From assembly GCA_040755615.1 (NCBI GenBank), contig JBFMAL010000008.1, positions 4,693-68,692 on the forward strand: 64,000 nt of DNA, written 5' to 3'. The position numbers and the translations under genes are program-made. Every line of letters begins with the position of its first letter. The first letter of the stretch is position 1. Shown here piece after piece: positions 21,027 to 36,366 of the stretch. Source of the DNA: Bacillota bacterium. GTDB lineage: Bacteria > Bacillota > Sulfobacillia > DUSP01 > DYEP01. The notes beneath the pieces were generated by a model, which saw only the letters and a program-made list of their open reading frames with translations, did not search any database and had not been told where the DNA came from.

Positions 21027-21341
21027 GTGAGGATCGAGCGACACCCTATTCTGACCTTCAGCAAGGGCCCCAAGGTTCAATTCTACTTCGAAGGTGAGCC
21101 ACTGGAAGGATACGAAGGAGAACCCATCGCAGCTGCGCTCCACGCTGCAGGAATCAGATGTCTTCGTCATAGCCCGGTCAGGAACAGGCCTCGGGGCTTC
21201 TTTTGTGCTATTGGCAATTGTTCCTCCTGTCTCATGGTGGTTGACGGGATCCCCAACGTCAGGGTATGCGTTGAGAAGCTCCGCCCGGGCATGGACGTGC
21301 GGCGCCAGAAGGGGAAAGGTGATCTGCATGTTTCGGACTGA
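21027..21341 (+). CDS. [2Fe-2S]-binding small subunit (HcnA / sarcosine-oxidase-alpha N-terminal-like) of a multi-subunit FAD dehydrogenase
   Basis: 104 aa. ...PRGFFCAIGNCSSCLMVVDGIPNVRVC... is typical of HcnA / OoxB-N 2Fe-2S domains. GTG start. The 3' end overlaps the next gene by 14 nt. Confidence 0.8.
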   Translation: MRIERHPILTFSKGPKVQFYFEGEPLEGYEGEPIAAALHAAGIRCLRHSPVRNRPRGFFCAIGNCSSCLMVVDGIPNVRVCVEKLRPGMDVRRQKGKGDLHVSD

Positions 21342-22419
21342 ACTGGCCGTGGTCGGAGCAGGTCCGGCAGGCCTTTCAGCAGCGCTCGCCGCTGCCGAGT
21401 GCGGCGTCGCGACGCTGATTGTAGACAACGGCAGCACCCCCGGCGGCCAACTTGTAAAGCAGACGCACAAGTTTTTCGGGTCAAAGGCCGAGCACGCAGG
21501 CACCAGGGGGATAGATATCGCACGCCAGCTTGCCGATGAACTGCAAAGAAGCCCGGAAGTGGAGTACTGGCGTGAAAGTACGGCGCTCGGCTACTACGAG
21601 GACAGAGTATTGCTGGTTGAACTCGAAGGCCGCGCGCTCCCGGTGCGCTGCGACGCGTTGGTGGTCGCCACAGGCGCAGCGGAACGTCATGTGGTATTTC
21701 CTGGCAATGATTTGCCTGGCATCTACGGGGCCGGAGCGGTGCAAACGCTCATGAACGTCCACGGCGTAAAGCCCGGCGAGCGCGTGCTTATGGTGGGCGC
21801 CGGGAACATCGGTCTCATCGTGTCGTACCAGCTGTTACAGGCCGGCGTTCAAGTGGCGGCCGTGGTGGAGGCGGCCCGGTCCATTGGCGGCTACGCGGTC
21901 CACGCATCCAAACTTCGCCGCCTGTCTGTCCCCATTCTCACATCTCACACCGTAAAAGAAGCGCACGGGCATGAGCAGCTCGAACGCGCGACTGTATGGC
22001 GGGTTGACGAGACGTTTACCGGTGTGCCGGGGACTGAAATCGAGTTCGACGTTGACGTGATCTGCCTTGCGGTGGGGCTCTCACCGGTTACAGACCTGCT
22101 GTGGCAGATTGGGTGCAAGATGAAATATGTCCCGGAACTCGGCGGACACGTACCGCTCAGAAATGAGAACATGCAGACGACTCGGAGCGAGGTGTTCGTA
22201 GCGGGAGATGCATCAGGCGTGGAGGAGGGCTCCTCCGCAATGGTAACGGGCAGGCTGGCAGGCTATGCAGCAGCCGCTCACCTCGGCAAATGCCCCGACT
22301 TTGAAAGCAGAAAGAGAGAGTGCCAGCGCGCGCTGGATGCGCTCAGGGCAGGTCCTTCCGGACAGAAGGTGCGTACCGGACTCTCGACCGTCGTCTGGAG
22401 GGAGGCAGTCACGTGTTGA
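21328..22419 (+). CDS. FAD/NAD(P)-binding oxidoreductase subunit (HcnB / proline-dehydrogenase-complex alpha-like)
   Basis: 363 aa. Two Rossmann GxGxxG motifs (AVVGAGPAGLSAA and LMVGAGNIGL) plus ...FVAGDASG.... Pyridine-nucleotide-disulfide oxidoreductase fold. Confidence 0.85.
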   Translation: MFRTELAVVGAGPAGLSAALAAAECGVATLIVDNGSTPGGQLVKQTHKFFGSKAEHAGTRGIDIARQLADELQRSPEVEYWRESTALGYYEDRVLLVELEGRALPVRCDALVVATGAAERHVVFPGNDLPGIYGAGAVQTLMNVHGVKPGERVLMVGAGNIGLIVSYQLLQAGVQVAAVVEAARSIGGYAVHASKLRRLSVPILTSHTVKEAHGHEQLERATVWRVDETFTGVPGTEIEFDVDVICLAVGLSPVTDLLWQIGCKMKYVPELGGHVPLRNENMQTTRSEVFVAGDASGVEEGSSAMVTGRLAGYAAAAHLGKCPDFESRKRECQRALDALRAGPSGQKVRTGLSTVVWREAVTC

Positions 22420-22907
22420 AGAGTACAGGTATCCCCGAGAGAGAGCAGCTGGACGCGGTGACTCCCCCCGCGTCCCGCAGGAGCAAAGGACCTGTGGCGG
22501 TGTTTGAATGCTTCGAACGTATACCCTGCGATCCGTGCTATCACGCATGCAAGCATGGGGCGGTCAAGGAGTTTTCAGACATCTGTGATGTGCCGGAAGT
22601 GGACTTTGAGCGCTGCACCGGGTGCGGGCTGTGCGTGGTGGCATGCCCTGGCCTTGCCATATTCATCCTGGACGAAACCCCTTCCGATCACGCTGTGGTC
22701 GGGATACCTTACGAAATGCTCCCCGTGCCGGAACCAGGACAGGAGGTCACGCTGCTTGACCGCGAAGGCCGTGACCTGGGAAAGGGACAGGTGAAGCAGG
22801 TAAGCCGGCCGGGCGTGGGAAGCGGAACGCTGCTGGTGAGGCTTAAGATACCGAAGGAGACGGTAGGAGACGTGAGGAGTTTTAGGCTGGAGCGGGGTAT
22901 GTCATGA
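22413..22907 (+). CDS. Ferredoxin-like Fe-S subunit (4Fe-4S CxxCxxCxxxCP)
   Basis: About 164 aa. CDPCYHACKHGAV and CTGCGLCVVACPGLAI. GTG at 22413 after GGAGGGAGG. It overlaps the upstream stop. Confidence 0.7.
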   Translation: MLKSTGIPEREQLDAVTPPASRRSKGPVAVFECFERIPCDPCYHACKHGAVKEFSDICDVPEVDFERCTGCGLCVVACPGLAIFILDETPSDHAVVGIPYEMLPVPEPGQEVTLLDREGRDLGKGQVKQVSRPGVGSGTLLVRLKIPKETVGDVRSFRLERGMS

Positions 22908-23179
22908 GCAATGATGCGATCATTTGCAGGTGCGAGGACATTCTGCTCTCGGACATAAGGCGGCTTCTGGACGCAGGGCTCACTACGTTGGACGAGATCA
23001 AGAAGTTCTCAAGGTGCGGTATGGGACCCTGCCAGGGCAGGACATGCAGGTCGCTGTTGCTTGGGGAGATCGCGAGGTACCGGGGGATTCGCGTTCACGA
23101 CCTTGAGCCAGGGCGCTTTAGACCACCGGCGAAGTCCGTTCCAATCAGCGCTTTCCTCGAAGGCGGGGAGGAGCCGTGA
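22904..23179 (+). CDS. BFD-like [2Fe-2S]-binding small subunit
   Basis: 91 aa. ICRCEDILLSDIRRLLDAGLTTLDEIKKFSRCGMGPCQGRTC is the BFD-like [2Fe-2S] domain signature (CxC...CxxxxC). ATGA overlaps on both sides. Confidence 0.75.
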   Translation: MSNDAIICRCEDILLSDIRRLLDAGLTTLDEIKKFSRCGMGPCQGRTCRSLLLGEIARYRGIRVHDLEPGRFRPPAKSVPISAFLEGGEEP

Positions 23180-24321
23180 CGCGCGCAGATATAGTAATAG
23201 TTGGCGGCGGGATAGTGGGGTGCTCCATCGCGTATCACCTGGCGCAACGTGGCATGCGCCGCGTCGTGGTGCTTGAGCGCTCACACATTGCTTCAGGGGC
23301 TACCGGACGTTGCGGCGCCGGTGTACGGATGCAGTGGGGCACAAAGCCCAACTGCCTCGTGATGAAAGAAAGCATACGCATGCTTGAATGCTTGGAGCAG
23401 GAACTCTGCTATCCTCATGGAATAGCTTTCAAGCAAAAGGGATACCTGTTTTTGGCCCACTCCGAAGCCCAGCTGGTGCAGTTTCAGAAAAACGTCCAGC
23501 TTCAAAACAGCCTTGGCATTCCGTCAGAGATCGTGGGCCCGAGGGAGATGAAACGCATCGCCCCGCTTCTTGATACCACAGGGATCGTGGGGGGCAGCTA
23601 CTGTTCAAAAGATGGACATTGCGACCCGTTCCACACCACCCGCGCCTACGCACTAGCTGCGATGAGGCTCGGGGTGACGATACTTCAGCACACCGAACTG
23701 CAGTCGGTCACGAAGAGACCCGAGGGCACGTTCAGGTTGAGCACAAGCGCAGGAGAGATGGAAGCGCCTGTGCTGGTCAACGCTGCCGGGGCTTGGTCAG
23801 GCCATGTAGGAAGGATGCTCGGTGTCGAGCTACCGGTGTACTCGGAGCGTCACCAGATACTCGTGACCGAGCAAGTCGAGCGGGTACTGGACCCGATGAT
23901 CATCTCGCTTCACGAAGGGCTGTACTGCCAGCAGACCCCGGATGGCAGTTTTATAATGGGGCTCGGCGATCCAAACGAGCCCAAGGGCATTGATCACGGG
24001 CACACGTGGCAGTTTCTCTTCGCAATATCAAGAAAGATCGCCCGGCTCTTGCCAGGCATCGCTGGAGTACGCATACTCAGGCAGTGGTCCGGTCTATACA
24101 ACATGTCTCCCGATCGCCAAGCGATTCTTGGAGCCGTGGACGATGTCCCCGGGTTCTACGTGGCTTGCGGGTTCAGCGGGCACGGCTTCATGATGGCTCC
24201 GGCCATATCCGAATCGATGGCAGATATCATTCTCGGGGGCACGCCGAGGGTGCCGATAGACGTGTACGGTCTTGACCGGTTCAAGAATGGAAATCTGTTT
24301 TATGAACCGTCGGTGGTCTAA
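23176..24321 (+). CDS. FAD-dependent amine/amino-acid dehydrogenase subunit (DAO family; HcnC / SoxB / proline-dehydrogenase-complex beta-like)
   Basis: 381 aa. N-terminal DIVIVGGGIVGCSIAYHLAQRG dinucleotide fold; GxGxxG...GATGR...; C-terminal ...GFSGHGFMMAPA... typical of DAO-family flavoproteins. Confidence 0.85.
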   Translation: MTRADIVIVGGGIVGCSIAYHLAQRGMRRVVVLERSHIASGATGRCGAGVRMQWGTKPNCLVMKESIRMLECLEQELCYPHGIAFKQKGYLFLAHSEAQLVQFQKNVQLQNSLGIPSEIVGPREMKRIAPLLDTTGIVGGSYCSKDGHCDPFHTTRAYALAAMRLGVTILQHTELQSVTKRPEGTFRLSTSAGEMEAPVLVNAAGAWSGHVGRMLGVELPVYSERHQILVTEQVERVLDPMIISLHEGLYCQQTPDGSFIMGLGDPNEPKGIDHGHTWQFLFAISRKIARLLPGIAGVRILRQWSGLYNMSPDRQAILGAVDDVPGFYVACGFSGHGFMMAPAISESMADIILGGTPRVPIDVYGLDRFKNGNLFYEPSVV

Positions 24322-24332: not shown

Positions 24333-24758
24333 GTGAAGACGTTGAGACTTTCAAAAAGGGACGAACTCTGTTCGGGCTGCAGGAGCTGCATCTTGGTCTG
24401 CTCAATGGAGAACTTCCTGAAGGCAGACCCCACGCTCGCTGCACTCCGGATAAAGGGGCATTTTCCCGTTCCCGGGAAATATGAGGTGGTGCTTTGCGAC
24501 CAATGCGGGGAGTGCGAAAAAGCCTGCCCCACCGGAGCCATTTATGCCGACGGCGAAGCGTATCGCGTCAAGCCCGAAGAGTGCATTGCGTGCATGGCGT
24601 GCATCGAGGCCTGCCCGAAAGGCGCCATCTGGTTTAACCAGGCGCTGGGCGCTCCGGTAAAATGCGTGCTGTGCGGCGAGTGCGTGCGCTATTGCCCGCG
24701 ACAGGCCATCGTGGACGAGACCGGAGAAGTCAAGTGGGGAGGTGAACAGGCATGCTAG
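24333..24758 (+). CDS. Polyferredoxin (three to four 4Fe-4S clusters), partner of the downstream AOR
   Basis: CSGCRSCILVC, CDQCGECEKACP, CIACMACIEACP and CVLCGECVRYCP. Start is GTG at 24333 or TTG at 24342 (after GGAGGTG). Confidence 0.8.
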   Translation: MKTLRLSKRDELCSGCRSCILVCSMENFLKADPTLAALRIKGHFPVPGKYEVVLCDQCGECEKACPTGAIYADGEAYRVKPEECIACMACIEACPKGAIWFNQALGAPVKCVLCGECVRYCPRQAIVDETGEVKWGGEQAC

Positions 24759-26584
24759 GAGGGTACATGGGCAAGGGGCTACGCGTGAACCTTACATCGC
24801 GAAAGAGCTCCACGTTTGATATCCCCGAGGACTGGGCAAGGCGGTTCCTCGGCGGCCGCGGTTTCGCAGCTAAGATCCTTTATGACCAGCTGGATGCAGG
24901 CACCGACCCGCTCTCACCTGAGAACAAACTGGTAGTGGCCACAGGACCGCTCTCGGGGCTCTTCCTCCCGGGGAGCGGTAAGCTGACGTTTGCCTGCAAG
25001 TCTCCCGCAACAGGCGGGTACGCCGATGCCAACGTAGGCGGACATCTGGGGCCTGAGATCAAGTATGCCGGGTATGACGTGATCGTAGTTGAAGGAAAGG
25101 CGGCCGCTCCCTCGGTGCTGGTCATCGAGGACGACCGCGTGTCCATACGCGACGGCTCCCGCTACTGGGGGCTCGGTGCCATCGAAACAGAAAAGGCGTT
25201 GAAAGATGACCTCGGCGAGGCGTTCCAGTGCGCAGTCATAGGCCCCGCCGGCGAAAACCTTGTGAAGTATGCGTGCATATCGCATGACTTCGGCAGGCAA
25301 GCCGGCCGCTGCGGTGTGGGCGCGGTAATGGGCAGCAAGAACCTGAAAGCTATCGCAGTTTCTGGCACGCGGGCCATCCCGCTGGCCAAGCCGAAAGAAG
25401 CGCTGGAGAAGGGCAAACAGATGTACCTGTCGTGCTTCTCCAAGCCCGGGTTTTACGAGTGGACTCCCTACGGCACCGCGGGGGTGACCGACTGGGTGAA
25501 CGAGGTGGGCAGTTTCCCCACCAAGAACTTTTACACCGGCTACTTCGAGCACCACAAGCAAATCAACGGCCAGGCACTCAAAGAGCGGATCCTGGTCACC
25601 GATAAGGGTTGCTTTGGCTGTCCAATACCTTGCGGCAAGTACTCCCGCACGCGGTGGCAGGGCAAAGAGGTCATGGTCGAGGGTCCGGAGTACGAGACCA
25701 TCGCGATGCTGGGCGGTAACTGCTGCCTTAAGACTATTGAGGATGTGGCGTACGCCAACTACGCATGTGACGAGCTGGGCCTTGACACCATCTCTGCGGG
25801 CAATGTACTGGCCTTCGCCATGGAGTGTTATGAGAAAGGATTGCTCACCAGGGAAGAGGTGGGCCGAGAGATCAGATTCGGAGACCTTGAAAGCGTGGTA
25901 TTTCTGCTGTCGGAGATCGCAGCTCGCCGCGGCGTAGGCGCACTGCTTGCAGAAGGCGTGAAGGTCGCTGCCGAACGCATCGGACAGGGGTCTGAGCGAT
26001 TTGCTATCCATGTGAAGGGACTTGAAGTCTCAGGTTACGAGCCGAGGTACGCGCCTGCTATGCTGCTTGCGTACATGACCGCTGATGTAGGTGCCCACCA
26101 CAACAGGGCGTGGGCGATCACCTACGACGTAGCGGTGGGTAGAGACTCGCTTGAGGGAAAGGCGGAGAAGGTTATAGAGCTTCAGCACATAAGGCCGCTG
26201 TTTGACGCGCTCGGGCTCTGCCGCCTGCAGTGGGTGGAAATAGGATTCGAGCTGCATCACTACGGTGAGATCTTCCCGCTGGTCACGGGCATAGACTACG
26301 GTTGGGAAGACCTGATCCGTGCTTCCGAACGCATATGGAACCTGACGCGCCTGTTTAATATCAAGCATATCGCAGGTTTCGGTCGGAAGTATGACAGCGC
26401 TCCTCCGCGGTTCCTCGAGGAGCCTATGCCCTCAGGGCCAGTAGAAGGTAAACTCACTGGCGCAAAGAGCGCCGAACAGCTGCTGGACCGCTACTACCAG
26501 CTCAGGGGATGGAGCCCGGACGGCATACCTACGAAGCAAACGCTGGCTGAGCTAGACCTTATTGAGGAAGGCGCAGCATATTAA
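24752..26584 (+). CDS. aor: Tungsten-type aldehyde:ferredoxin oxidoreductase (AOR family)
   Basis: About 605 aa. AOR N-terminal ...GKGLRVNLT.... 4Fe-4S ligation motif DKGCFGCPIPCGK. Overall similarity to the AOR/FOR/GAPOR family. ATG at 24767 (after GGAGGG) is an alternative start. Confidence 0.9.
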   Translation: MLGGYMGKGLRVNLTSRKSSTFDIPEDWARRFLGGRGFAAKILYDQLDAGTDPLSPENKLVVATGPLSGLFLPGSGKLTFACKSPATGGYADANVGGHLGPEIKYAGYDVIVVEGKAAAPSVLVIEDDRVSIRDGSRYWGLGAIETEKALKDDLGEAFQCAVIGPAGENLVKYACISHDFGRQAGRCGVGAVMGSKNLKAIAVSGTRAIPLAKPKEALEKGKQMYLSCFSKPGFYEWTPYGTAGVTDWVNEVGSFPTKNFYTGYFEHHKQINGQALKERILVTDKGCFGCPIPCGKYSRTRWQGKEVMVEGPEYETIAMLGGNCCLKTIEDVAYANYACDELGLDTISAGNVLAFAMECYEKGLLTREEVGREIRFGDLESVVFLLSEIAARRGVGALLAEGVKVAAERIGQGSERFAIHVKGLEVSGYEPRYAPAMLLAYMTADVGAHHNRAWAITYDVAVGRDSLEGKAEKVIELQHIRPLFDALGLCRLQWVEIGFELHHYGEIFPLVTGIDYGWEDLIRASERIWNLTRLFNIKHIAGFGRKYDSAPPRFLEEPMPSGPVEGKLTGAKSAEQLLDRYYQLRGWSPDGIPTKQTLAELDLIEEGAAY

Positions 26585-26649
26585 CCGACTGGAGGGCCGG
26601 GGCCCCCAGAGGGTCCCGGCACGGCCCGCACAGGCCATGAGGTGAGATA

Positions 26650-26883
26650 ATGGACTACGTAAGCTTTACCATACACGGACACGCGCGGGAATACTTCCCG
26701 TCCAAAGAGCGATTCAGGCACAAGGTGACCGGTGAGACTACTGTGAGAAAGGTGCTTGAACATCTTGGTGTGAACCCGCTTCTCGTCATGTACGTCGTGA
26801 AAAACGGAAAGCGGGTCTCGCTTGACGATCCCATCACCGGAGGAGACGAAGTGGTGCTCATCACTCCGGCAGCAGGTGGTTGA
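26650..26883 (+). CDS. MoaD/ThiS-family ubiquitin-like sulfur-carrier protein (C-terminal Gly-Gly)
   Basis: 77 aa ending ...VVLITPAAGG. Small beta-grasp-sized ORF immediately after the AOR. RBS GAGGTGAGA. Confidence 0.75.
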   Translation: MDYVSFTIHGHAREYFPSKERFRHKVTGETTVRKVLEHLGVNPLLVMYVVKNGKRVSLDDPITGGDEVVLITPAAGG

Positions 26884-27136
26884 AGTCCGTGCGAGTATGT
26901 GACTGGCGGTAAAGAGGGTACATGGCATATCGCCCCTTCTTACGACCACAGACCCTTCACTCCTTGCGGGCTTGGTATCGCCGCTTTCGCCGTGAGTAAG
27001 GTGGCGACCGGACCGCTTTCACTTCACCCAGCCGGCAGTTGCTTCACGGAGAGGGTGTTCCACCGTCTGGATGTTCTCTCACTTGCGGCGTGAGCAAGAG
27101 GTCCGCAACTTGATTCAGGCAAGGAGACGATGCAAT

Positions 27137-29464: not shown

Positions 29465-29644
29465 GCCGGACCGCCTTCGCAGGTTGTCCGCAAAGACAAA
29501 TCGGTGTCTGCAAAGTTGGCACAGATAACAAAGGATATAGATGGCGGGCGATAGAAGTCTGATACGATTTGAGCCGGAGGGAGGAAATCCGTTGGGGTAG
29601 ACAGCGAGTATGGCAGGCTGCTTCACGTTGCGTTATGCGAGCCT

Positions 29645-30433
29645 TTGCACTTTCGTATTGAAACCGCGATCAATGAGATCCAGAAGAAATTCTTGGAATC
29701 CGAAAAGCCTGACGCCATACGGGCGGCTTCTGAGCACTCTGCGTTCTCCAGTCACCTTGAGGAGCTCGGCGTGAAGGTGGTTCGGATACCCCCCGCAAAA
29801 GCCCATCCATATCAGGTGAACACGAGAGACATAGGCGTGTCGGGGCCAGACGGCGTGGTGCTGGGCAAGTTCAGGTTCGATATAAGGCGGGGTGAAATAG
29901 ACATTTCTGAGCGCGCTCTATCTCAGGCAAACGTGCGCATCGTGGGCCGAACGACGCGCTGCTTCGAGGGCGGGGACTTTGTGTACATAGGTCCTGGTAA
30001 GGCCGCGCTTGGCGTGGGGGTCAGGACAGACCCGGATGTTGTAGAAGAACTTACCCGCCTACTTCAAGTTGACATTGTGACAGTGTCTTTTGCTGAAGAA
30101 TTCCTTCATCTTGACATGGTGTTTAACTGTGTCGCCCCGGGCATCTGTGTGCGCTGCCCTGATGCTCTGCCCGGCGACTTCCTTTCCTACATTGATTCGC
30201 TCGGATTCGATTCCATTGAAGTGACAAAGGAGGACGTGTTTAACCACGCATGTAACCTCCTTGCACTCGCTCCCTTTCACGTGGTCGCACCGAGGGAACA
30301 CCCGTATGTGACAAAAGCTCTGCGCGCTCGCGGGGTCCGCGTGGACGTGATCGACCTCACCGAAATCACAAAAAGCGGTGGAGGGCCTCGCTGCATATCT
30401 TTCCCGATCGCCCGGGAACCGTGTAGCACGTGA
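29645..30433 (+). CDS. Pentein-fold amidinohydrolase resembling N(G),N(G)-dimethylarginine dimethylaminohydrolase (DDAH) / amidinotransferase family
   Basis: FEGGDFVYIGPG...GVRTD, LHLDMVFN and C-terminal KSGGGPRCISFPI (catalytic Cys) align with DDAH motifs. The reading frame is open upstream to 29573 (..VDSEYGRLLHVALCEP.., conserved N-terminal region) with no canonical start codon; the annotated TTG start is probably too short. Confidence 0.7.
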   Translation: MHFRIETAINEIQKKFLESEKPDAIRAASEHSAFSSHLEELGVKVVRIPPAKAHPYQVNTRDIGVSGPDGVVLGKFRFDIRRGEIDISERALSQANVRIVGRTTRCFEGGDFVYIGPGKAALGVGVRTDPDVVEELTRLLQVDIVTVSFAEEFLHLDMVFNCVAPGICVRCPDALPGDFLSYIDSLGFDSIEVTKEDVFNHACNLLALAPFHVVAPREHPYVTKALRARGVRVDVIDLTEITKSGGGPRCISFPIAREPCST

Positions 30434-30599
30434 GTTTACGGCCAAGGTATTCTCTGGCCGCATGACTTTGTCGAAATAGGATACGCACCGCGCCGCTAAC
30501 CCTGCTTGATTAGCGGTACGGAGGGGGTGGGACAGTACACGGACATCTAGGTGACAGCGTCTCTTTTCCGGTTTGGAAAAACTCAATGGAGGTGGTCCA

Positions 30600-31958
30600 A
30601 TGAACAAAGGTAAAGGCGGTTATAAGGTCGAGCCGGCTCGCTTTTGGAAGTTCTTGATCCCGTCCGTTATCGGTATTCTCATCTATATCGTACCCCTTCC
30701 ATGGAAAGGCGCCTTCAGCATCGTCGTAGGCATGATGGCGGACACGCTAGAAAAGACTTTCTCCAATGTAGTCCCTTACTTCATTACGACTGTGATCTGC
30801 CTGTCAGCCCTTATTGCGCTTTTTACTCGCCTGGCAAAACCCAAGGCGATCCTAGACAATGCCTACCTGAACAAGCTGTTCAACACAACGCCGTTCTGGC
30901 TCACTTTCAGGTGCGTAGGCGCGGTGTTCGCGGTCATGACATTGTTTAAGATCGGACCGGAGTTTATCTGGCACGCCAATACGGGCGGCCTCATGCTTCA
31001 TGTACTCTTACAGGTACTTACGTTCTGGTTCCTAGCTGCAGGCTTCTTCCTCCCGCTGCTCACGGACTTCGGAGCCATGGACTATGTGGGCACGCTGCTC
31101 CGGCCCGCATTCCGACCCCTGTTTACCATCCCGGGGAGGTCGGCCATCGATGCAACGGCGTCCTTCATCGGCAGCGCGCCCATCGGCGTGGTGATCACCA
31201 ACCGCCAGTACGTGGGCGGGTTTTATACCCTGAGAGAAGCGGCTGTCATCGCGACGTGCTTCTCAATCGTATCGCTACCCTTTAACCTGGTTGTGGCAGG
31301 ATTCCTCGATCTTATGCACCTATTCCCTAAGTGGTACCTGACGGTCATCATCGTCACCGTGGTGAACGCCATAGTCCTCCCGAGGATCTACCCCCTCAAC
31401 AAGAAGCCAGATTCATACCACCCAGTCACAGGAAAACGCGTTGAGGAGGAGATCCCTGCGGGCCTCTCTATGAACGCGTGGGCTCTGCAGAACGCAATGA
31501 AGAGGGCTGACGAGGTAGAGTCCTGGATGCACGTACCGAGAGAAGGCACAAAGATCGTGCTCGACGTGTGGTTCGGAGTGGAGCCCTTGGTCATGGCCTG
31601 GGGTACCATCGCCCTAGTCATCGCTGAGTTTACCCCGTTCTTCAACTGGATCTCTACGCCGTTTGCCTATTACTTACAGCTCTTGCAGGTACCTGAAGCG
31701 GTGGCAGCTGCACCGGCAGCTCTTGTAGGTTTTGCCGACATGTTCCTCCCTGCCATCCTTATCAAGGGGCTGCCAGAGCTGACCAGGTTCATCCTAGGCG
31801 TGCTGTCTATCACCCAGCTGATCTACATGACGGAAGTAGGCGCCATCCTGCTTCAGTCTGATATGAAGATCTCGTTGTGGGACCTTGTCGTCATATTCCT
31901 CGAGAGAACCATACTATCGCTGCCCCTCATCACTCTCGCAGCGGCTATACTGCTTTGA
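30600..31958 (+). CDS. YjiH/YjiG-type nucleoside-recognition (Gate) domain membrane protein, putative substrate permease
   Basis: About 452 aa, polytopic. Architecture matches the YjiH family (two Gate domains), which is often adjacent to amidohydrolase genes. ATG at 30600 after GGAGGTGG. Confidence 0.7.
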   Translation: MNKGKGGYKVEPARFWKFLIPSVIGILIYIVPLPWKGAFSIVVGMMADTLEKTFSNVVPYFITTVICLSALIALFTRLAKPKAILDNAYLNKLFNTTPFWLTFRCVGAVFAVMTLFKIGPEFIWHANTGGLMLHVLLQVLTFWFLAAGFFLPLLTDFGAMDYVGTLLRPAFRPLFTIPGRSAIDATASFIGSAPIGVVITNRQYVGGFYTLREAAVIATCFSIVSLPFNLVVAGFLDLMHLFPKWYLTVIIVTVVNAIVLPRIYPLNKKPDSYHPVTGKRVEEEIPAGLSMNAWALQNAMKRADEVESWMHVPREGTKIVLDVWFGVEPLVMAWGTIALVIAEFTPFFNWISTPFAYYLQLLQVPEAVAAAPAALVGFADMFLPAILIKGLPELTRFILGVLSITQLIYMTEVGAILLQSDMKISLWDLVVIFLERTILSLPLITLAAAILL

Positions 31959-31986
31959 AAACCAAACCTGCTAGCTAATAGAGAAC

Positions 31987-32016
31987 AAAAGCTCCCGGAA
32001 CACGGGGGCTTTTGTC
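31987..32016 (+). terminator. Rho-independent terminator after the permease gene
   Basis: AAAGCTCCCG-GAACA-CGGGGGCTTT hairpin followed by TTTTGT. Confidence 0.55.
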
Positions 32017-32315
32017 GCTTAGAATTCAGAGGCAAGTTAGTGCAATGTAAAAGGTACGAACCGCGTGACTTTCGGTGCACGTGCGCTCGCACGCAGCCGT
32101 GCACTCACCTCACGCGTGCCCACTCTTGATTACGAGAATAGAGAAAGGTGCGCATCACGTTGAAAGGATGCCTGCAAGCTCTGGCAGGCTCTTGTTGTGT
32201 CAATCCACGGTCATGAGAGAAACAAGCCGCGCCCGGGAACGACGCAGCCCGCGTTCACATGGAGGAACACAACGCTATTTGAAGAAGTTATCATAATAGG
32301 AGGGAGGGAGACCGT

Positions 32316-34043
32316 GTGTCCATCAGTGTGCAAGAAGCCATGCTGCTTGAGCCTTTTCGTCGAGCTCGGTTGATTGCAGGGCAGGGCGGATTGGACCGGC
32401 TGATCAGGTCTGTCACAGTTATGGATACGCCCGATATAGCCAACTGGCTGAAGGGTAACGAGCTGCTCCTCAGCAACATATTTGTCATCCGCGATGATCC
32501 CAAGGCGCAGGTCGCCCTTATCAAAGAGATCGTCAACAAGGGTGCTGCGGCGCTCGGTATAAAGCTGAAGCGGTTCGTTGACAGCATCCCACAGGAAATG
32601 ATTGAACTAGCAGACGAGCTCTGTCTTCCCATTATTGAAATGCCTGTAGACGTCGCGTGGATCGACGTAATCACACCAGTGCTTGGCGAGGTCTTGAACA
32701 GGCAGCTCACCGCGCTCGAGCGGTCAGAAGAGATCCACCGCAGGTTTACGTCAACAGTGTTAAAGGGCGGAGGGCTATCCGCCATTGCGGACAACCTGGC
32801 CGAACTGATCAGGTTTTCGGTGACAATTACTGACGCGGCGTTCACTGTGTTGGCGGAAGCTGGCGCAGGCGCGGCCGTACCGGGCGGGTTCGTGCCTCTT
32901 GGTGATTTGGTAAGACATCTTGAAGAAGCTACCGAAGTGAAGACACCGCTAGGCCACAGCTTCTTCAGGGTAAGACTGAATGGCGTCGATTGTCTGTGCT
33001 GTCCGGTAAAGGCAGAGCAGGACCTCTACGGCTACCTGCTAGTGTGGTTGCCCGCAGAGGCGGAGGTGACCGAACGAGACACAGTGGCCATAGAGCACGG
33101 GCTCACCGTCACCGCACTGGAGATGGTGAAACGCCAGGCCGTCTCCGAAGTGGCGCGGAGATTTCAGAACAACTTCATCCTTGATCTTCTCACAGGCAAC
33201 ATGGAGTCGCGCGAGACAGTCATAGGTAGGGGTAAATCGTTCGGCTGGAATCTTGAGGTCCCATACTGGCTTATGATACTTGACATTGACGAGTTTGAGC
33301 GATTCTACCTGAATCAGACCAGAGCTGACGATCACCGGGCACAGAGAGTCCGGGAACAATTCGTGAACAGCGTAAGACGGGCGCTGGTGGATGAAGGGTT
33401 TGGCGAAGAGGCTATGACAATGGATCTGAGCGACAGCGTCACGGTGCTGCTGCCGAAGAAAGATGAACGATGTGACTGCAAAAGTATTGCCTCACGGATC
33501 AAAGACCGCGTGACCCGGGACATGAAGGAAGTCACCGTCTCAGCAGGGATAGGTCGCTTTTACCCGGATATCATGGACTTGAAGCGCTCTTACCGGGAAG
33601 CTAAGCAGGCGCTGACCCTGGGGCGTGCGGTTTGGGGGAGAAACTCAGTGATCCACTTCGATGACCTTGGTGCATACCGCGTGCTTTGCTCCATAACCGA
33701 CCGGGAAGAGTTGCTGGCGTTTCATCACGAGACCATCGTGCCGCTACTTCAATATGACGAGAAAACAGACAGCGACCTCATACGAACGCTCGAAACCTAC
33801 TTCAGCTGCCAAGAGAATATCAAGGCGACGGCGCAGAAGATGTTCATCCACCCGAACACCGTGCGCTACAGGCTGAACAGAATCTCGGACCTGGTGGGCC
33901 TTTCGCTGGAAAGGAGCGAGGATCGGCTGAATCTCCAGATCGGGCTGAAGGTGCACCGCCTGCTCGGCGGCAAACCCCGTGCCTTGTCACAGTTCACTAA
34001 CCAGGACGGGGAATCTTTGGCGAAAAGCACAAAGGAAGCTTGA
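32316..34043 (+). CDS. PucR/CdaR-family transcriptional regulator (C-terminal PucR HTH)
   Basis: 575 aa. C-terminal ...TLETYFSCQENIKATAQKMFIHPNTVRYRLNRISDL is the PucR_C HTH signature. GTG start after GGAGGGAGGGAG. Confidence 0.85.
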   Translation: MSISVQEAMLLEPFRRARLIAGQGGLDRLIRSVTVMDTPDIANWLKGNELLLSNIFVIRDDPKAQVALIKEIVNKGAAALGIKLKRFVDSIPQEMIELADELCLPIIEMPVDVAWIDVITPVLGEVLNRQLTALERSEEIHRRFTSTVLKGGGLSAIADNLAELIRFSVTITDAAFTVLAEAGAGAAVPGGFVPLGDLVRHLEEATEVKTPLGHSFFRVRLNGVDCLCCPVKAEQDLYGYLLVWLPAEAEVTERDTVAIEHGLTVTALEMVKRQAVSEVARRFQNNFILDLLTGNMESRETVIGRGKSFGWNLEVPYWLMILDIDEFERFYLNQTRADDHRAQRVREQFVNSVRRALVDEGFGEEAMTMDLSDSVTVLLPKKDERCDCKSIASRIKDRVTRDMKEVTVSAGIGRFYPDIMDLKRSYREAKQALTLGRAVWGRNSVIHFDDLGAYRVLCSITDREELLAFHHETIVPLLQYDEKTDSDLIRTLETYFSCQENIKATAQKMFIHPNTVRYRLNRISDLVGLSLERSEDRLNLQIGLKVHRLLGGKPRALSQFTNQDGESLAKSTKEA

Positions 34044-34102: not shown

Positions 34103-35278
34103 TTGTTGAACTGGGACAAGTACATTTCGAAGGCTAGCGCCGGGCTTTTGGAATTCGGTATAAGGAAGATATTTGAGGCCGCGCAGAAGCTCGAAGCGCA
34201 GGGCTCGCGCATCATCCACCTTGAACTCGGAAGGCCGGACTTTGATACGCCGTGCCACATAAAGAACGCTGCCATCTCAGCGCTGGAGGCAGGTGAGGTA
34301 CACTACACTTCCAATTGGGGCTTGCCCGCCCTGAGGGAGGCCGTCGCATCGTATATCCATCGCAAGACAGGCGTCAGCTACAACCCGCACACCGAGACCC
34401 TCGTGACCGTCGGTGGCAGCGAAGCGGTGTTTCTTGCCTTTGCCGCCCTGCTAGACCCGGGGGATGAAGTGCTGGTGGGCGTTCCCGCGTATCCCACCTA
34501 CCTGAACGTACCTCAATTTTTCGGAGCACGCGTGGTGTTGTTTGAGTGCCCGGAGCAGCTGGATTTCGCGCCCGACCCCGATGACATAAGGAGGAAGGTT
34601 TCAGGAAGGACTAAACTCCTGGTGCTCAACACCCCGAACAACCCGACGGGCAGCGTGTATCCATCCGATATCCTCCAGGAAGTGTGCCGCATCGCGTGTG
34701 AGAACGACCTCATCGTGCTGTCAGACGAGATATACTGCGAGTTGGTTTACGAAGGCGCGCATATTTCGCCCGCAGTCTTTCCCGGCATGAAACAGCGCAC
34801 GCTTATATTAAACGGGCTGTCAAAGACCTATTCAATGACGGGCTGGCGCGTGGGGTACGCTGTGGGGCCTGCCGAGATCCTTACGCCTATGTATAAGGTG
34901 CACCAGTATAACACCGCGTGCGCGCCGTCGTTCTGCCAGATCGGCGCAGTAACCGCGCTTACCTCCGACCAGAGCTGCGTGGATGTTATGCGCGGCGAGT
35001 TCAGGCGCAGGCGGGACTTGATCACGTCCTACCTCAATCAGGTCAAAGGTTTCACCGCCCGCACACCGCAGGGAGCGTTCTATGCCTTTCCCAGGATCTC
35101 GGTCCCTGGTATGAGCGATGTGGAGGTCGCCTTCTATCTCCTTGAGAAGGCGGGAGTGGCTCTCGTGCCGGGGAGCTTCTTTGGTACTCCCGGATTTCTG
35201 AGGCTGTCATATGCCAGTTCTACTGAAAACCTAAAGAGCGCGGGCGAGCGGATCATCGAAGCGATGGCCGCACTGTAG
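34103..35278 (+). CDS. PLP-dependent aminotransferase, class I (aspartate aminotransferase-like)
   Basis: ...LELGRPDFDTP..., ...NTPNNPTG..., ...LSKTYSMTGWRVGY (PLP-Lys), ...PGSFFG...LRLSY. The start is uncertain (TTG 34097 / 34103 / 34106). Confidence 0.85.
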   Translation: MLNWDKYISKASAGLLEFGIRKIFEAAQKLEAQGSRIIHLELGRPDFDTPCHIKNAAISALEAGEVHYTSNWGLPALREAVASYIHRKTGVSYNPHTETLVTVGGSEAVFLAFAALLDPGDEVLVGVPAYPTYLNVPQFFGARVVLFECPEQLDFAPDPDDIRRKVSGRTKLLVLNTPNNPTGSVYPSDILQEVCRIACENDLIVLSDEIYCELVYEGAHISPAVFPGMKQRTLILNGLSKTYSMTGWRVGYAVGPAEILTPMYKVHQYNTACAPSFCQIGAVTALTSDQSCVDVMRGEFRRRRDLITSYLNQVKGFTARTPQGAFYAFPRISVPGMSDVEVAFYLLEKAGVALVPGSFFGTPGFLRLSYASSTENLKSAGERIIEAMAAL

Positions 35279-35399
35279 AGCGCTTCGCAAACCCTGGACG
35301 TTCCGTCTTGTAATTGAGACATGCTGTAAGCAGCCTTTGAGTTCTCCGTTAGGGCGCGTCCATTTTCGCAGATATGAGACGCACGCATAAGAAACGCCA

Positions 35400-35434
35400 G
35401 CATCGGGCAGCTAACGCCTGATGCTTCCTTTTTG
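35400..35434 (+). terminator. Intrinsic terminator after the aminotransferase gene
   Basis: GCATCGGGC / GCCTGATGC stem (9 bp, one G-U) with a 7-nt loop, followed by TTCCTTTTTG. Confidence 0.55.
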
Positions 35435-35490
35435 GTACGGAACGTGCACGTGTGACCCAGTATGAGGCTATATGCGGGGGAGTGTGATCC

Positions 35491-36366
35491 ATGACTCGAA
35501 AACCGATCAAGGTGTCGCTGATACAGGTGCGTTGCACGGACGATACGGTGCATAATCTCGAACGGACCATCCAGTTGGTGAGGCAGGCTTCGCAGGACGG
35601 CGCCCACATCATATGCCTTCAGGAGTTGTTCCAAACACTGTACTTCCCGCAACGGGTTGAGGTGGACAAATACCGCCTGGCTGAGCCCGTTCCCGGCCCG
35701 ACCACCGAGCGTATGCGCGCCCTGGCGGAAGAACTGGGTGTCGTGCTGCTGGTTCCGTTGTACGAATACGCAATGGCCGGCGTGTACTTCAACACCTGCG
35801 TGGTAGTAGATGCCGATGGAAAGGTGCTTGGTAAGATGCGCAAATGTCACATACCTGAAGGACCACAGTACTTCGAAAAATACTACTTCACCCCAGGTGA
35901 TCTGGGCTATCCCGTGTTCCATACCCGGTACGGGCGTATCGGCGTTGGCATCTGCTGGGATGAGTGGTTCCCCGAAGTAGCGCGGATCCTCACTTTGAAA
36001 GGTGCAGAAATCGTGTTTTATCCGTCGGCCATAGGCTCTGAACCTGACCGCCCGGGCTTTGACTCCCGCGAACCCTGGGAGACAGTCATGCGCGGACATG
36101 CCATAGCCAACGGCATCTATGTGGCTGCCGTCAACAGGGTGGGAACTGAGGCGGGGATGAGTTTTTACGGTGGAAGCTTCATCGCCGACCCGCTAGGCAA
36201 CGTGCTCGCCCGCGGCTCCACTACCGACGAGTGCATCGTCAGCGCCGAGGTAGACCTCAGCTGCATCCGCGAGACCAGGGACCTGTTTCAGTTCCTGAGA
36301 GACCGAAGGGTAGACACTTACCGGGATATCTTGAGGATTATGGGAGCGTGTGGAGTGGACAGCTGA
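35491..36366 (+). CDS. Carbon-nitrogen hydrolase family amidase (N-carbamoylputrescine amidase AguB-like)
   Basis: 291 aa. ...ICLQELF (catalytic Glu), ...RKCH (Lys), ...GVGICWDEWFPE (Cys). Strong resemblance to N-carbamoylputrescine amidohydrolases. Confidence 0.85.
   Translation: MTRKPIKVSLIQVRCTDDTVHNLERTIQLVRQASQDGAHIICLQELFQTLYFPQRVEVDKYRLAEPVPGPTTERMRALAEELGVVLLVPLYEYAMAGVYFNTCVVVDADGKVLGKMRKCHIPEGPQYFEKYYFTPGDLGYPVFHTRYGRIGVGICWDEWFPEVARILTLKGAEIVFYPSAIGSEPDRPGFDSREPWETVMRGHAIANGIYVAAVNRVGTEAGMSFYGGSFIADPLGNVLARGSTTDECIVSAEVDLSCIRETRDLFQFLRDRRVDTYRDILRIMGACGVDS

Follow-up and report, generated by a model that had tools for sequence, protein, structure and literature searches.

The locus raises the question of which compound is broken down by the products of 16 co-directional genes at positions 21027-36366 on the + strand of the window, i.e. 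the 64,000-nucleotide stretch of Bacillota DNA that was analysed, and whether these genes act as one system. A preliminary description had suggested a PucR-regulated island of unclear substrate, with a resemblance to the agmatine deiminase route and a possible role for methylated arginine or other guanidino or polyamine compounds. The coherent, PucR-associated nitrogen cluster stands, while the evidence points to arginine, citrulline, ornithine and proline as the compounds involved. Our preferred reading, which we hold tentatively and at slightly less than an even chance, is that an anaerobe here converts arginine or citrulline and proline to glutamate with non-standard parts, probably under PucR control.

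Layout and conservation of the cluster

All genes listed in the preliminary description were recovered on the + strand at the positions given there, and four small Fe-S/MoaD genes that are present in the cluster were missing from its list. The genes fall into four transcription units, and two strong terminators lie among them. Terminators had been proposed at 31987 and 35400 and both were confirmed: the first lies 3' of the permease gene at 31989-32016 (+ strand; -22.3 kcal/mol, z -6.4, then UUUUG) and the second 3' of the aminotransferase gene at 35399-35435 (+ strand; hairpin to 35425, -17.7 kcal/mol, z -2.9, T-run), where it is kept in both closest relatives, L003 and L013. No convincing terminator was found 3' of either the MoaD gene or the CN hydrolase gene. 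Upstream of the MBL operon, a leader of ~250 nt (26884-27136, + strand) is conserved in the L003/L013 alignment and may form a stem; an Rfam search with this leader gave no match. Measured against NCBIfam equivalog models, every enzyme of the window stays below the cut-off.

The idea of a mobile island did not hold up. The GC content of the cluster (0.54-0.59) equals that of its flanks and gives no compositional sign of foreign origin, the neighbours are housekeeping genes, and dN/dS values of 0.04-0.15 for all genes against L003, an 89%-identical relative, reveal purifying selection. The proposed theme of polyamine and methyl-group metabolism is likewise unlinked to the cluster, as 11-20 kb, including dinG, surE and cell-wall genes, separate the latter from speH (1268-1648) and from the MTAP/SAH hydrolase/deaminase operon (6.8-10.1 kb). 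A synteny check across relatives had also been suggested, and the cluster proved fully syntenic in two of them, L003 and L013, which share the gene order across the whole 15 kb.

The layout would also suit several independent units that merely stand side by side: a proline-utilisation operon (complex and AOR), an operon for arginine uptake and deimination, PucR with a general aspartate aminotransferase, and a stand-alone AguB for putrescine synthesis. We consider this unlikely. The four transcription units with their two strong terminators agree with it, as does the outcome of the suggested search for PucR-binding sites, in which no operator motif common to the four upstream regions was found; against it, the order of the 15 kb has been kept at dS values of 0.25-0.64. 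The remaining evidence on this point comes from other genomes and is given below.

The dehydrogenase complex and its tungsten-type oxidoreductase

The first five genes of operon 1 encode a flavo-iron-sulfur complex. A [2Fe-2S] Fer2_4 protein (21027-21341; Pfam Fer2_4, 97 bits), the split N-terminal part of an alpha subunit, overlaps by 14 nt the gene for the FAD/NAD(P) Pyr_redox_2 alpha subunit (21328-22419), whose PDB matches include sarcosine oxidase alpha and 1Y56_A (PH1363). The Fer2_4 gene also heads the complex in L090, L091, L092, L094 and L106. These are followed by a gamma-like [4Fe-4S] ferredoxin-like subunit (22413-22907; Pfam Fer4), the position of which is constant in all homologous operons, a delta-like SO_alpha_A3/BFD-like [2Fe-2S] small subunit (22904-23179; PF17806, PF04324) and a DAO-family catalytic beta subunit, the predicted L-proline dehydrogenase (23176-24321). 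The latter matches the beta subunit of the Pyrococcus horikoshii L-proline dehydrogenase (1Y56_B), its best PDB match, over its full length with 282 bits, compared to 136 for SoxB, the sarcosine oxidase beta subunit. The same set of five also occurs in Desulforamulus reducens MI-1 and Desulfofundulus (DAO subunit 51-57% identical), where the very next gene encodes an Aldedh that passes the cut-off of the glutamate-semialdehyde dehydrogenase equivalog TIGR01237 (765 and 770 bits, cut-off 660). Judged by these matches, this bacterial complex is homologous to the heteromeric L-proline dehydrogenases of archaea.

The last three genes of operon 1 form an aldehyde:ferredoxin oxidoreductase (AOR) module, composed of a polyferredoxin resembling the electron-transfer subunit AorA (24342-24758; three Pfam Fer4 domains), a tungsten-type, FOR-like AOR (24752-26584; AFOR_N, AFOR_C) and an AorD-like ThiS/MoaD-like small accessory protein (26650-26883; Pfam ThiS). 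The best PDB match of the AOR is the Pyrococcus furiosus FOR (1B25, 495 bits), followed by AOR (1AOR, 452). The polyferredoxin-AOR pair is conserved in ~20 metagenome loci, a ThiS/MoaD-like gene also lies 3' of AOR in L093 and L097-L100, and the order of dehydrogenase complex, polyferredoxin and AOR recurs in L003 and L013 and in the metagenome loci L094 and L106. The module occupies the operon slot of the glutamate-semialdehyde (P5C) dehydrogenase, which it replaces.

A different use of these parts was the idea of the preliminary description, namely that the cluster would break down a methylated guanidino or N-methyl compound. Here, the pentein would be a DDAH or a deiminase of creatine or guanidinoacetate, and its product would lose the carbamoyl group through the CN hydrolase. 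The DAO complex would serve as a sarcosine- or methylamine-type dehydrogenase releasing formaldehyde for oxidation by the FOR-like AOR, and the aminotransferase together with the glyoxylate-reductase-like dehydrogenase would dispose of glycine as glycolate. We rate this scheme as quite improbable. It draws on the name of the best solved homologue of the AOR, formaldehyde:ferredoxin oxidoreductase, on the matches of the DAO and alpha subunits to heterotetrameric sarcosine oxidase with the SO_alpha_A3 domain, and on L106, where the AOR-linked complex adjoins genes for an MttB-family methyltransferase and a BCCT transporter; these neighbours are compatible with N-demethylation releasing formaldehyde and count against the arginine and proline reading. 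However, the DAO score against the L-proline dehydrogenase subunit is twice that against SoxB, the closest DAO homologues share their operons with an authentic glutamate-semialdehyde dehydrogenase, the L106 subunit shares only 37% identity with that of the window, and methyltransferase or C1 genes are absent from the window cluster. The label "FAD amine dehydrogenase" and the methylarginine substrate attached to it are accordingly weakened.

The pentein and its genomic neighbourhoods

The pentein gene (29592-30433, + strand; Pfam ADI, DDAH_eukar) was annotated with a start at 29645, with the coding sequence of the conserved N-terminal strand beginning at 29597; the true start probably lies at ~29592-29597, although no canonical start codon for this strand is present in the window gene. 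The protein keeps the TRD, R..E, EGGD, G.RT, HLD and GGPRC motifs of 405-aa arginine deiminases (ADIs) and lacks their helical inserts, with a length of ~280 aa compared to ~410, and is named "mini-ADI" because of this combination. A structure model (pLDDT 92.5) retrieved ArgZ/AgrE as the top Foldseek hits (TM 0.82-0.86, rmsd 2.2 A), followed by ADI and DDAH. Sequence identity to ArgZ/AgrE is 22%, and Asn71 of ArgZ aligns with the invariant D89 of the pentein; this ADI-type Asp leads to the prediction of a deiminase rather than a dihydrolase. The earlier label "DDAH-like" suits size and fold, whereas its motifs match arginine deiminase and the DDAH equivalog scores fall far short (77, cut-off 300). 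In view of ADI and DDAH structures, retention of the HLD aspartate presumably favours an unmethylated guanidinium, and together with the other ADI residues it opposes the methylarginine scheme. The pentein most likely represents an uncharacterised miniature arginine deiminase, predicted to convert L-arginine to citrulline and NH3, from a small family with 295 representatives in 1.84 billion proteins.

Neighbourhoods were counted in 76 genomes with the pentein. A 2HADH gene lies within 7 kb in 45 of them and a class I/II aminotransferase gene is found nearby in 43, RocB-family citrullinase in 40, PucR in 28 and OTC in seven, mostly Chloroflexia, while transporters also recur. RocB, aminotransferase and 2HADH occur together in 33/76 genomes, and pentein, aminotransferase and 2HADH are co-localised in 40/76, spanning at least three deep pentein clades. 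The M20 protein of the cassette is 30-53% identical to Bacillus RocB, for which hydrolysis of citrulline to ornithine has been demonstrated experimentally (PMC10404663). RocB and OTC as conserved partners are citrulline consumers, which again argues against methylarginine. The window carries a variant of this recurrent cassette, and the claim of a coherent nitrogen-catabolic cluster with PucR is upheld by its recurrence, including a transporter, in dozens of unrelated genomes.

The window versions of these components were compared individually. The D-isomer 2-hydroxyacid dehydrogenase (2HADH; 28055-29038; Pfam 2-Hacid_dh; PDB 6BII, 203 bits) is glyoxylate-reductase/PGDH-like, and its similarity to glyoxylate reductases would suit the glycine-disposal scheme. 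The Gate-domain permease (30600-31958) is predicted to import or exchange the substrate; the earlier label "YjiH-family" was not confirmed, Gate being its sole Pfam match. Homologues (45-49% identical) adjoin the pentein in 14 loci, which come from Bacillaceae, Halanaerobiales, Syntrophomonadaceae and Selenomonadaceae. The class I (AspAT-like) aminotransferase (34106-35278; Thermus thermophilus AspAT, 307 bits), located 62 nt 3' of pucR, has homologues with 41-44% identity next to the pentein in L005, L016, L020, L031 and L034. Across genomes, the neighbouring 2HADH and aminotransferase proteins are 30-47% identical to those of the window and are homologues, not proven orthologues. Lineage-specific components are an MBL-fold hydrolase (27137-28030; Lactamase_B, weak PDB matches only) and a small cupin (29084-29464; Cupin_2), whose homologues are confined to L003 and L013 within the 76 pentein loci.

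Several of these features bear on the possibility of independent units. The generic, AspAT-like nature of the aminotransferase favours it, as do the 575-aa PucR-family regulator of the window (32316-34043; PucR N-domain, GGDEF_2, HTH_30), which aligns only at its two ends with the shorter, 390-aa PucR types near the cassette in 28 other genomes, and the restriction of the proline-dehydrogenase-like complex near the pentein to three lineages (the window's, L020 and L050), with AOR in few. On the other side stand the co-localisation in 40 genomes, the repeated presence of PucR-family regulators with the cassette, and L020, where complex, aminotransferase, pentein and 2HADH form a single co-directional run. 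The pentein family may also act on other guanidino substrates, given L009, with an omega-aminotransferase and a methylmalonate-semialdehyde dehydrogenase, and L005, where three pentein paralogues stand beside a corrinoid methyltransferase set; the latter context also suits catabolism of a methylated compound.

The CN hydrolase (35491-36366, + strand) belongs to the N-carbamoyl-amine amidase clade, with PDB matches of 267 bits to 5H8I and 128 to Nit2. The label "AguB-like" is correct, with a score below the equivalog cut-off (TIGR03381, 329.7 vs 410 bits). The gene is absent without a remnant from L003 and L013, where citrulline would have no local consumer, and this indel is in line with independent units. 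Homologues lie near pentein and OTC in L028 and L029, and the gene is regarded as an accessory one and a candidate citrullinase (or AguB). An agmatine deiminase route is contradicted by its absence from the two closest relatives and by the pentein, which matched the ADI and DDAH models of Pfam and no agmatine deiminase model in the Pfam and NCBIfam scans.

A possible route to glutamate and its relation to known systems

In the arginine and proline reading, the Gate permease would import a guanidino amino acid, most likely L-arginine, which the mini-ADI would deiminate to citrulline and NH3. Citrulline would then be converted to ornithine, here by the AguB-like CN hydrolase and in other genomes by RocB or OTC, and the class I aminotransferase would take off the alpha-amino group. 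The predicted role of the 2HADH-family enzyme is to reduce the resulting 2-oxo acid or the cyclic imine delta1-pyrroline-2-carboxylate, yielding proline or a 2-hydroxy acid; to our knowledge, no pyrroline-2-carboxylate reductase belongs to this family, and the step would be without precedent in it. The five-subunit complex may then oxidise proline to P5C/glutamate-gamma-semialdehyde, and the FOR-like AOR with its polyferredoxin may oxidise the semialdehyde to glutamate in place of the NAD-dependent P5C dehydrogenase of relatives.

A further explanation shares the entry from arginine to citrulline or ornithine and departs where proline would connect the two halves. Aminotransferase and 2HADH would form a Stickland-like reductive branch that strips nitrogen and re-oxidises NADH, a 2-hydroxy acid (e.g. 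2-hydroxy-5-ureido-, 5-guanidino- or 5-amino-valerate) would be exported, and the path would bypass proline, leaving operon 1 to deal with exogenous proline only. We hold this to be somewhat unlikely. The pairing of an aminotransferase with a D-2-hydroxyacid dehydrogenase is the standard route from amino acids to 2-hydroxy acids (FldH and LdhA in clostridia, HicDH in lactic acid bacteria), an AEC/Mem_trans carrier ends the cassette in 25 genomes, and most cassettes lack the proline-dehydrogenase complex. Conversely, three separate lineages carry such a complex beside the cassette, an AEC gene is missing from the window cluster, and the cyanobacterial AgrE/PutA pathway from arginine via ornithine and proline to glutamate is a real precedent for this design. 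In addition, L-proline dehydrogenase genes are paired with pyrroline-2-carboxylate reductase in Thermococcus clusters (PMC4141209).

Among known systems, DDAH resembles the pentein in size and in the DDAH_eukar match and differs in its equivalog scores, and AguA/AguB share a CN hydrolase nearest to N-carbamoylputrescine amidase, which the closest relatives have not kept alongside their pentein. The classical ADI pathway (ArcA-ArcB-ArcC-ArcD) shares all catalytic and binding motifs, OTC beside the pentein in some genomes and an adjacent permease gene; in contrast, the helical domain is missing from the pentein, neither OTC nor carbamate kinase is encoded in the window, and its permease is a Gate-domain protein rather than ArcD. 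Cyanobacterial ArgZ/AgrE with PutA offers the nearest fold and a similar pathway design, with the pentein first, then proline and glutamate, whereas the ADI-type Asp and the absence of the fused ornithine cyclodeaminase domain set the window pentein apart. The Bacillus subtilis Roc (RocF/RocB, RocD, RocA; RocR-sigma54) and Put (PutB, PutC; PucR-type PutR) systems likewise lead arginine, citrulline, ornithine and proline to glutamate via P5C/glutamate semialdehyde, with a PucR-type regulator of amino-acid catabolism and a RocB-family citrullinase as found near the pentein elsewhere. Instead of arginase, RocB, class III ornithine aminotransferase, PutB-type proline dehydrogenase and NAD-dependent P5C dehydrogenase, the window would employ the mini-ADI, the CN hydrolase, class I aminotransferase plus 2HADH, the heteromeric flavo-Fe-S proline dehydrogenase and the tungsten AOR. 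The archaeal dye-linked L-proline dehydrogenases (P. horikoshii PDH 1Y56; T. profundus alpha-beta-gamma-delta) provide the best full-length match of the beta subunit and counterparts of the alpha (FAD/NAD), ferredoxin-like and small BFD-like subunits, while the window complex is bacterial, has its alpha subunit split into Fer2_4 and Pyr_redox_2 and is co-transcribed with the AOR module rather than free-standing. Finally, P. furiosus FOR/AOR and Aromatoleum AorABC share the AFOR_N/AFOR_C architecture, and bacterial Aor operons the polyferredoxin subunit and MoaD-like accessory gene; the window AOR differs in being encoded within the operon of an amino-acid dehydrogenase, in the place of P5C dehydrogenase, with glutamate semialdehyde as its predicted physiological substrate.

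Architecture, conservation and regulation of the cluster

The preliminary description was right about the cluster as such: 16 genes lie between 21027 and 36366, all on the plus strand, and intergenic gaps and terminators define four units among them. Unit A encodes Fer2_4, Pyr_redox_2, Fer4, SO_alpha_A3/BFD and DAO proteins, a polyferredoxin, an aldehyde:ferredoxin oxidoreductase (AOR) and a ThiS/MoaD protein, with overlaps of 4-14 nt and gaps of at most 65 nt. Unit B is preceded by a conserved 253-nt leader and contains an MBL gene, a D-2-hydroxyacid dehydrogenase (2HADH) gene and a cupin gene and, some 130-180 nt further on, the genes for a pentein and a Gate permease; a strong terminator closes the unit (31989-32016, -22.3 kcal/mol, z -6.4). 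The MBL and cupin proteins occur only in this lineage and have no informative relatives. Unit C consists of a PucR-family regulator and a class I aminotransferase, with a terminator at its 3' end (35399-35425), and unit D is a CN hydrolase gene alone, after which no clear terminator was found.

Both flanks are made up of housekeeping genes. Upstream lie speH-like, M42 peptidase, ndk, MTAP, SAH hydrolase, deaminase, dinG, surE, HDAC-like, patatin-like, peptidoglycan deacetylase and SASP genes; downstream are cinA, thpR, recA, recX, rny, ymdB and spoVS, then mutS, mutL, miaA and hfq. The speH-type gene (1268-1648) encodes a SAM decarboxylase proenzyme with an ISESH cleavage motif, and the operon at 6813-10149 combines MTAP and SAH hydrolase with an Amidohydro_1 protein resembling MTA/SAH deaminase; these genes are 11-20 kb from the cluster, with unrelated genes in between. 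The HDAC/acetylpolyamine-deacetylase-like gene occupies 16694-17758, and on a marine sediment contig (L093, 6690-11901) a 50% homologue of it and an adjacent membrane-protein gene stand directly before polyferredoxin, AOR and MoaD genes. At the other end of the window, 62099-63928 encodes a RACo-type corrinoid reductive activase.

The closest relatives of the window are found on a JGI metagenome contig (L003) and in a MAG labelled Symbiobacterium sp. Tomsk_54_12 (L013). With the exception of the CN hydrolase, both carry the same gene set in the same order between deacetylase/SASP and cinA-recA, at 82-97% amino-acid identity, and dN/dS against L003 is 0.04-0.15 for all genes (dS 0.25-0.64). The CN hydrolase is absent from both, where tblastn detected no remnant of it and where the preceding terminator and the following cinA upstream region are conserved. 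The GC content of the cluster equals that of its flanks, a domain scan found no integrase, transposase or other mobility genes, and a repeat search found no repeats bordering it. A mobile nature of the 'island' proposed earlier is not upheld by these observations, nor by the shared position and order in the two relatives; since the composition resembles that of the flanks and mobility genes and bordering repeats were not found, the word can be read only as 'cluster'.

The regulator belongs to the PucR family, with a PucR N-terminal domain at 121 bits, HTH_30 at 82 bits and an additional GGDEF_2 domain, and it reaches no equivalog cut-off (AdeR, CdaR, PmfR). It may plausibly control all four units; that the units are independent and merely adjacent also has an appreciable probability. 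In searches for a shared operator, the sequences upstream of pucR and of the CN hydrolase gene suggested a GTGCACGTG-like motif, which gave 34 matches against 21.7 expected; 2 of 100 shuffles reached this number, and the matches were not concentrated at promoters. A repeat search returned only chance-level pairs, and footprinting with L003 and L013 revealed conserved blocks with no common motif. A sigma-70 promoter scan yielded no enrichment (8 against 7.4 expected), and no sigma-54 -24/-12 element was seen by eye in the intergenic sequences. Rfam searches for riboswitches were negative, both at the gathering threshold across the window and at E <= 1 across 26600-32400. The leader before the MBL gene (26884-27136) is conserved in L003 and L013 and could form a long stem, with almost no covariation among only three close sequences.

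The proline dehydrogenase-like complex and the tungsten enzyme of unit A

Among solved structures, the DAO protein is best matched by chain B of 1Y56, which is the Pyrococcus horikoshii L-proline dehydrogenase beta subunit (282 bits over the full length, versus 136 bits to sarcosine oxidase beta). In its subunit make-up the complex is of the archaeal proline dehydrogenase (ProDH) type: the DAO beta subunit most resembles PH1364, and alpha and small Fe-S subunits with matching domains complete a set of five co-transcribed genes. Scores for the sarcosine oxidase subfamilies stay far below their cut-offs (soxA 162 against 1164, soxB 191 against 529), and the alpha subunit, at 363 aa, lacks a GCV_T domain, whereas that of SoxABDG has about 960 aa and a folate-binding domain.

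Anaerobic Firmicutes hold DAO homologues in abundance: more than 3000 matches reach E <= 1e-60, and those of the Desulfotomaculum group share 50-57% identity. Two genomes, Desulforamulus reducens MI-1 (L091) and a Desulfofundulus MAG (L090), carry the same five genes and, immediately downstream, one for an aldehyde dehydrogenase of 514-515 aa. This enzyme passes the TIGR01237 equivalog for L-glutamate gamma-semialdehyde dehydrogenase (P5CDH), with 765 and 770 bits (cut-off 660). In gene content, the five-gene complex plus P5CDH amounts to a split PutA. In the window, polyferredoxin, AOR and MoaD fill the terminal slot that P5CDH holds in these two genomes. The order complex, polyferredoxin, AOR recurs in L003 and L013 and on two unrelated metagenome contigs, L094 (AOR 64% identical) and L106 (52%). 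Additionally, the complex of Alkaliphilus hydrothermalis is followed by a ThiS/MoaD-like gene and a DUF362 Fe-S protein gene (L092, 10240-11798), and a Halobacteroidaceae MAG carries DUF362, AOR and ThiS genes near its pentein (L004, 13243-16961).

The AOR has the full-length domain content of a tungsten enzyme (AFOR_N 267 bits, AFOR_C 437 bits) and is closest to P. furiosus FOR (1B25, 495 bits), then to AOR (452 bits). FOR prefers C4-C6 semialdehydes and dialdehydes over formaldehyde. To our knowledge, its physiological substrate is unsettled, the natural substrates having been uncertain since the 1990s. We infer that unit A would convert proline via P5C/glutamate semialdehyde to glutamate, with the tungsten enzyme catalyzing the second step, and that the AOR would be a non-orthologous displacement of P5CDH. 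No paper linking proline dehydrogenase to an AOR emerged from a literature search.

The L106 contig supplies a different setting. Here, the DAO subunit is only 37% identical to that of the window, and genes for an MttB-family methyltransferase, a BCCT transporter and an OCD/mu-crystallin protein lie directly upstream of the operon of ProDH-like complex, polyferredoxin and AOR (1091-11893). This organism may combine betaine or N-methylproline catabolism with the AOR, and the arrangement also fits N-demethylation with release of formaldehyde. A pathway in which methylated guanidino compounds are degraded and formaldehyde is the aldehyde oxidized has an appreciable probability; the HLD aspartate retained in the pentein would speak against it.

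The pentein family, its predicted activity and its genomic partners

The pentein (29645-30433 as annotated) matches only the ADI (arginine deiminase) and DDAH_eukar models of Pfam and approaches no NCBIfam equivalog cut-off. It scores 66 bits against 489 for TIGR01078 (ADI), 77.5 against 300, 55 against 340 and 42 against 450 for the DDAH equivalogs NF045659, NF045660 and NF045658, and 50.5 against 450 for NF052232 (ArgZ/AgrE arginine dihydrolase). Homologues are rare, with one at 89% identity and then about 16 clusters at 35-42%; a profile search of 1.84 billion representatives found 295 at E <= 1e-30. In an alignment of five family members with four ADIs of 405-415 aa, the catalytic Cys (GGPRC), the His and Asp of HLD, the guanidinium-binding Asp (TRD), EGGD and the carboxylate-binding Arg residues are invariant, and the further ADI motifs R..E and G.G.RT are kept. 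The protein is shorter, with 262-289 aa against about 410 aa and a five-helix insertion domain in ADI; a helical insert of ~85 aa and a second insert of ~30 aa are missing from it.

The AlphaFold model is confident (pLDDT 92.5); of the solved structures, the N-terminal arginine dihydrolase domains of ArgZ and AgrE come closest to it in fold (TM 0.82-0.86, rmsd 2.2 A), followed by ADIs and then P. aeruginosa DDAH. The Asn found in ArgZ at position 71, where structure 6JUZ carries the N71S mutation that, by its PDB title, traps an intermediate, is replaced by Asp89, invariant in the pentein family. Because all ADI motifs are kept and Asp89 stands at the Asn71 position, the protein, termed mini-ADI, is predicted to be a deiminase that forms citrulline from L-arginine, and not a dihydrolase. 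Since the HLD aspartate is retained, it is presumably not a methylarginine hydrolase either, judging from the active sites of ADI and DDAH (dimethylargininase). Among domain fusions, P0325 and P0327 (protein representatives of 1190 and 1070 aa) join the pentein domain to TIR or NACHT and FGE-sulfatase-like domains, and many members of ~560-600 aa carry an unannotated ~300-aa N-terminal domain. The fusions were considered as a clue to the substrate and set aside as uninformative, the partners being unannotated or GNAT, TIR, NACHT and FGE-sulfatase domains.

The annotated TTG start (29645) would remove a core beta-strand (model residues 18-25), and the 18 codons before it encode the conserved N-terminus of the family. 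Compared with L003, these codons show five synonymous and two non-synonymous changes, so that the segment is under purifying selection, which suggests that it is translated; one change turns the annotated TTG into TTA in L003. No ATG, GTG or TTG lies in frame between the TGA at 29570-72 and 29645. A strong Shine-Dalgarno sequence, GGAGGGAGG, is located 7-8 nt before an out-of-frame TTG GGG TAG (29592-29600), and a -1 slip on G_GGG would produce an N-terminus, M-G-V-D-S-E-Y-G..., of the length usual in the family. Programmed frameshifting, non-canonical initiation and a truncated protein are the possibilities for this start. Expression by a -1 slip (UUG GGG UAG) after out-of-frame TTG initiation is a lesser possibility beside the two claims on the AOR and the pentein family that are joined below.

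Partners of the pentein were surveyed within 7 kb at 76 loci, one genome per species, by ORF clustering and tblastn. The most frequent are 2HADH (45/76), a class I/II aminotransferase (43/76) and a ~550-aa M20 protein of the RocB family (40/76), and all three are present in 33 of the 76 loci. A PucR-family regulator occurs at 28 loci, an AEC/Mem_trans carrier at 25, a polar-amino-acid ABC transporter at 24, a Gate permease 45-49% identical to that of the window at ten (14 with metagenome loci included) and ornithine carbamoyltransferase (OTC) at seven. The window regulator resembles the 390-aa cassette regulators at its two ends only. A lone gene of the AEC/Mem_trans family, whose members close the pentein cassette of 25 other genomes, is also present in the window between thiI and miaB (51469-52368). 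The loci belong to Butyrivibrio, Pseudobutyrivibrio, Roseburia, other Lachnospiraceae, Selenomonadaceae, Veillonellaceae, Clostridiaceae, Pseudogracilibacillus, Pontibacillus, Syntrophomonadaceae, Halanaerobiales, Tepidanaerobacteraceae and Chloroflexia. In a neighbour-joining tree, the association with aminotransferase and 2HADH appears in at least three deep pentein clades, and the clade of the window stands alone on a long branch.

The cassette M20 proteins are all 30-53% identical to Bacillus RocB, the Pontibacillus member reaching 53% over 97% of the length of 'Protein RocB'. RocB hydrolyses citrulline to ornithine, as shown genetically and in vitro (PMC10404663). RocB or OTC stands beside the pentein in 47 of the 76 loci; a domain scan of the window found no RocB gene (COG4187; M20, about 550 aa). 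Its CN hydrolase belongs to the N-carbamoyl-amine amidase clade, with 267 bits to N-carbamoylputrescine amidase versus 128 to Nit2. Given these counts and the clade of the CN hydrolase, citrulline consumers are the commonest partners of the pentein, which agrees with the arginine deiminase activity predicted from its motifs. The agmatine route (AguA/AguB) suggested earlier finds no such agreement: the pentein matches only ADI and DDAH_eukar models, and the CN hydrolase, absent from L003 and L013, scores 329.7 against the cut-off of 410.25 for TIGR03381 (AguB).

The ProDH-like complex adjoins the pentein cassette in two further lineages, L020 and L050 (Butyrivibrio sp. M55), and in L020 complex, aminotransferase, pentein and 2HADH form a single co-directional run. 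A GlpA-like DAO/BFD flavoprotein (~500 aa) is encoded between or beside complex and cassette in both (L020, 4663-8746; L050, 18915-20751); it is joined in L020 by a second Pyr_redox_2 protein and a ~125-aa putative DUF1667 protein, to which a ~125-aa ORF of L050 is similar.

Exceptions warn against a single function for all pentein loci. In L009, pentein, Gate and RocB-like genes accompany an omega-aminotransferase and methylmalonate-semialdehyde dehydrogenase, which looks like a beta-alanine route, and L014 and L028 carry a class III aminotransferase and an aldehyde dehydrogenase. L005 (GCA_963986545.1, 1-20846) contains three pentein paralogues, a Gate permease, a class I aminotransferase, Amidohydro_3 and a corrinoid methyltransferase set with two proteins of URO-D type and one that binds B12; genes for OTC, carbamate kinase, class III aminotransferase, DAO/BFD and DHDPS come next. 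Its content suggests a methylated guanidino substrate in this organism.

Pathway reading and comparison with known systems

The nitrogen catabolism anticipated in the preliminary description is supported in part, the best-supported reading being a system that leads from arginine/citrulline and from proline to glutamate. Here, arginine would pass through citrulline and ornithine to proline, the last step being catalyzed by a 2HADH-family pyrroline-2-carboxylate reductase. This proline link is the weakest step of the pathway; a literature search found no pyrroline-2-carboxylate reductase of the 2HADH family. Glyoxylate reductases and PGDH are the nearest relatives of the 2HADH, which scores well under their cut-offs. 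A 2-hydroxy acid as end product has an appreciable probability. The aminotransferase is AspAT-like, with 307 bits to T. thermophilus AspAT and 150 to KAT/glutamine transaminase K; a methionine-salvage reading (MtnE/MtnU, glutamine transaminase/omega-amidase) was rejected on these scores and on the low Nit2 score of the CN hydrolase.

The strongest form of the arginine/proline reading joins two claims, that the FOR-type AOR is a glutamate-gamma-semialdehyde:ferredoxin oxidoreductase, possibly joined in a supercomplex to a heteromeric proline dehydrogenase, and that the pentein founds a mini-ADI family defining an arginine-to-proline cassette; we regard both holding together as rather unlikely. 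If true, anaerobes would own a PutA equivalent whose second step reduces ferredoxin, and the FOR branch of the AOR family would gain a physiological aldehyde substrate. The pentein family, small at about 295 representative clusters and currently annotated only as 'arginine deiminase family protein', would likewise be assigned a function. Mini-ADIs would then mark out a cassette under PucR control (RocB, aminotransferase, 2HADH, transporter) that is widespread in gut, rumen and sediment bacteria, with a function in Butyrivibrio, Pseudobutyrivibrio, Roseburia, Selenomonas and others that bears on the turnover of arginine and citrulline in rumen and gut. If the pathway reading is wrong, the cluster would remain a clean case of non-orthologous displacement, AOR for P5CDH, missed by annotation pipelines.

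Arginine and proline catabolism are textbook pathways, of which the anaerobic versions are incompletely known. The cluster is a non-standard version of a known kind of pathway, its noteworthy parts being the mini-ADI cassette and the ProDH-AOR operon. Parallel designs are the Roc/Put system of B. subtilis and the cyanobacterial AgrE/PutA route, which leads from arginine via ornithine and proline to glutamate. A third parallel is provided by Thermococcus clusters that pair L-ProDH genes with pyrroline-2-carboxylate reductase (PMC4141209). In comparison to these three designs, the cluster is built from different parts: a mini-ADI, a CN hydrolase or RocB, a class I aminotransferase together with a putative 2HADH-family reductase, a heteromeric ProDH and a tungsten AOR.
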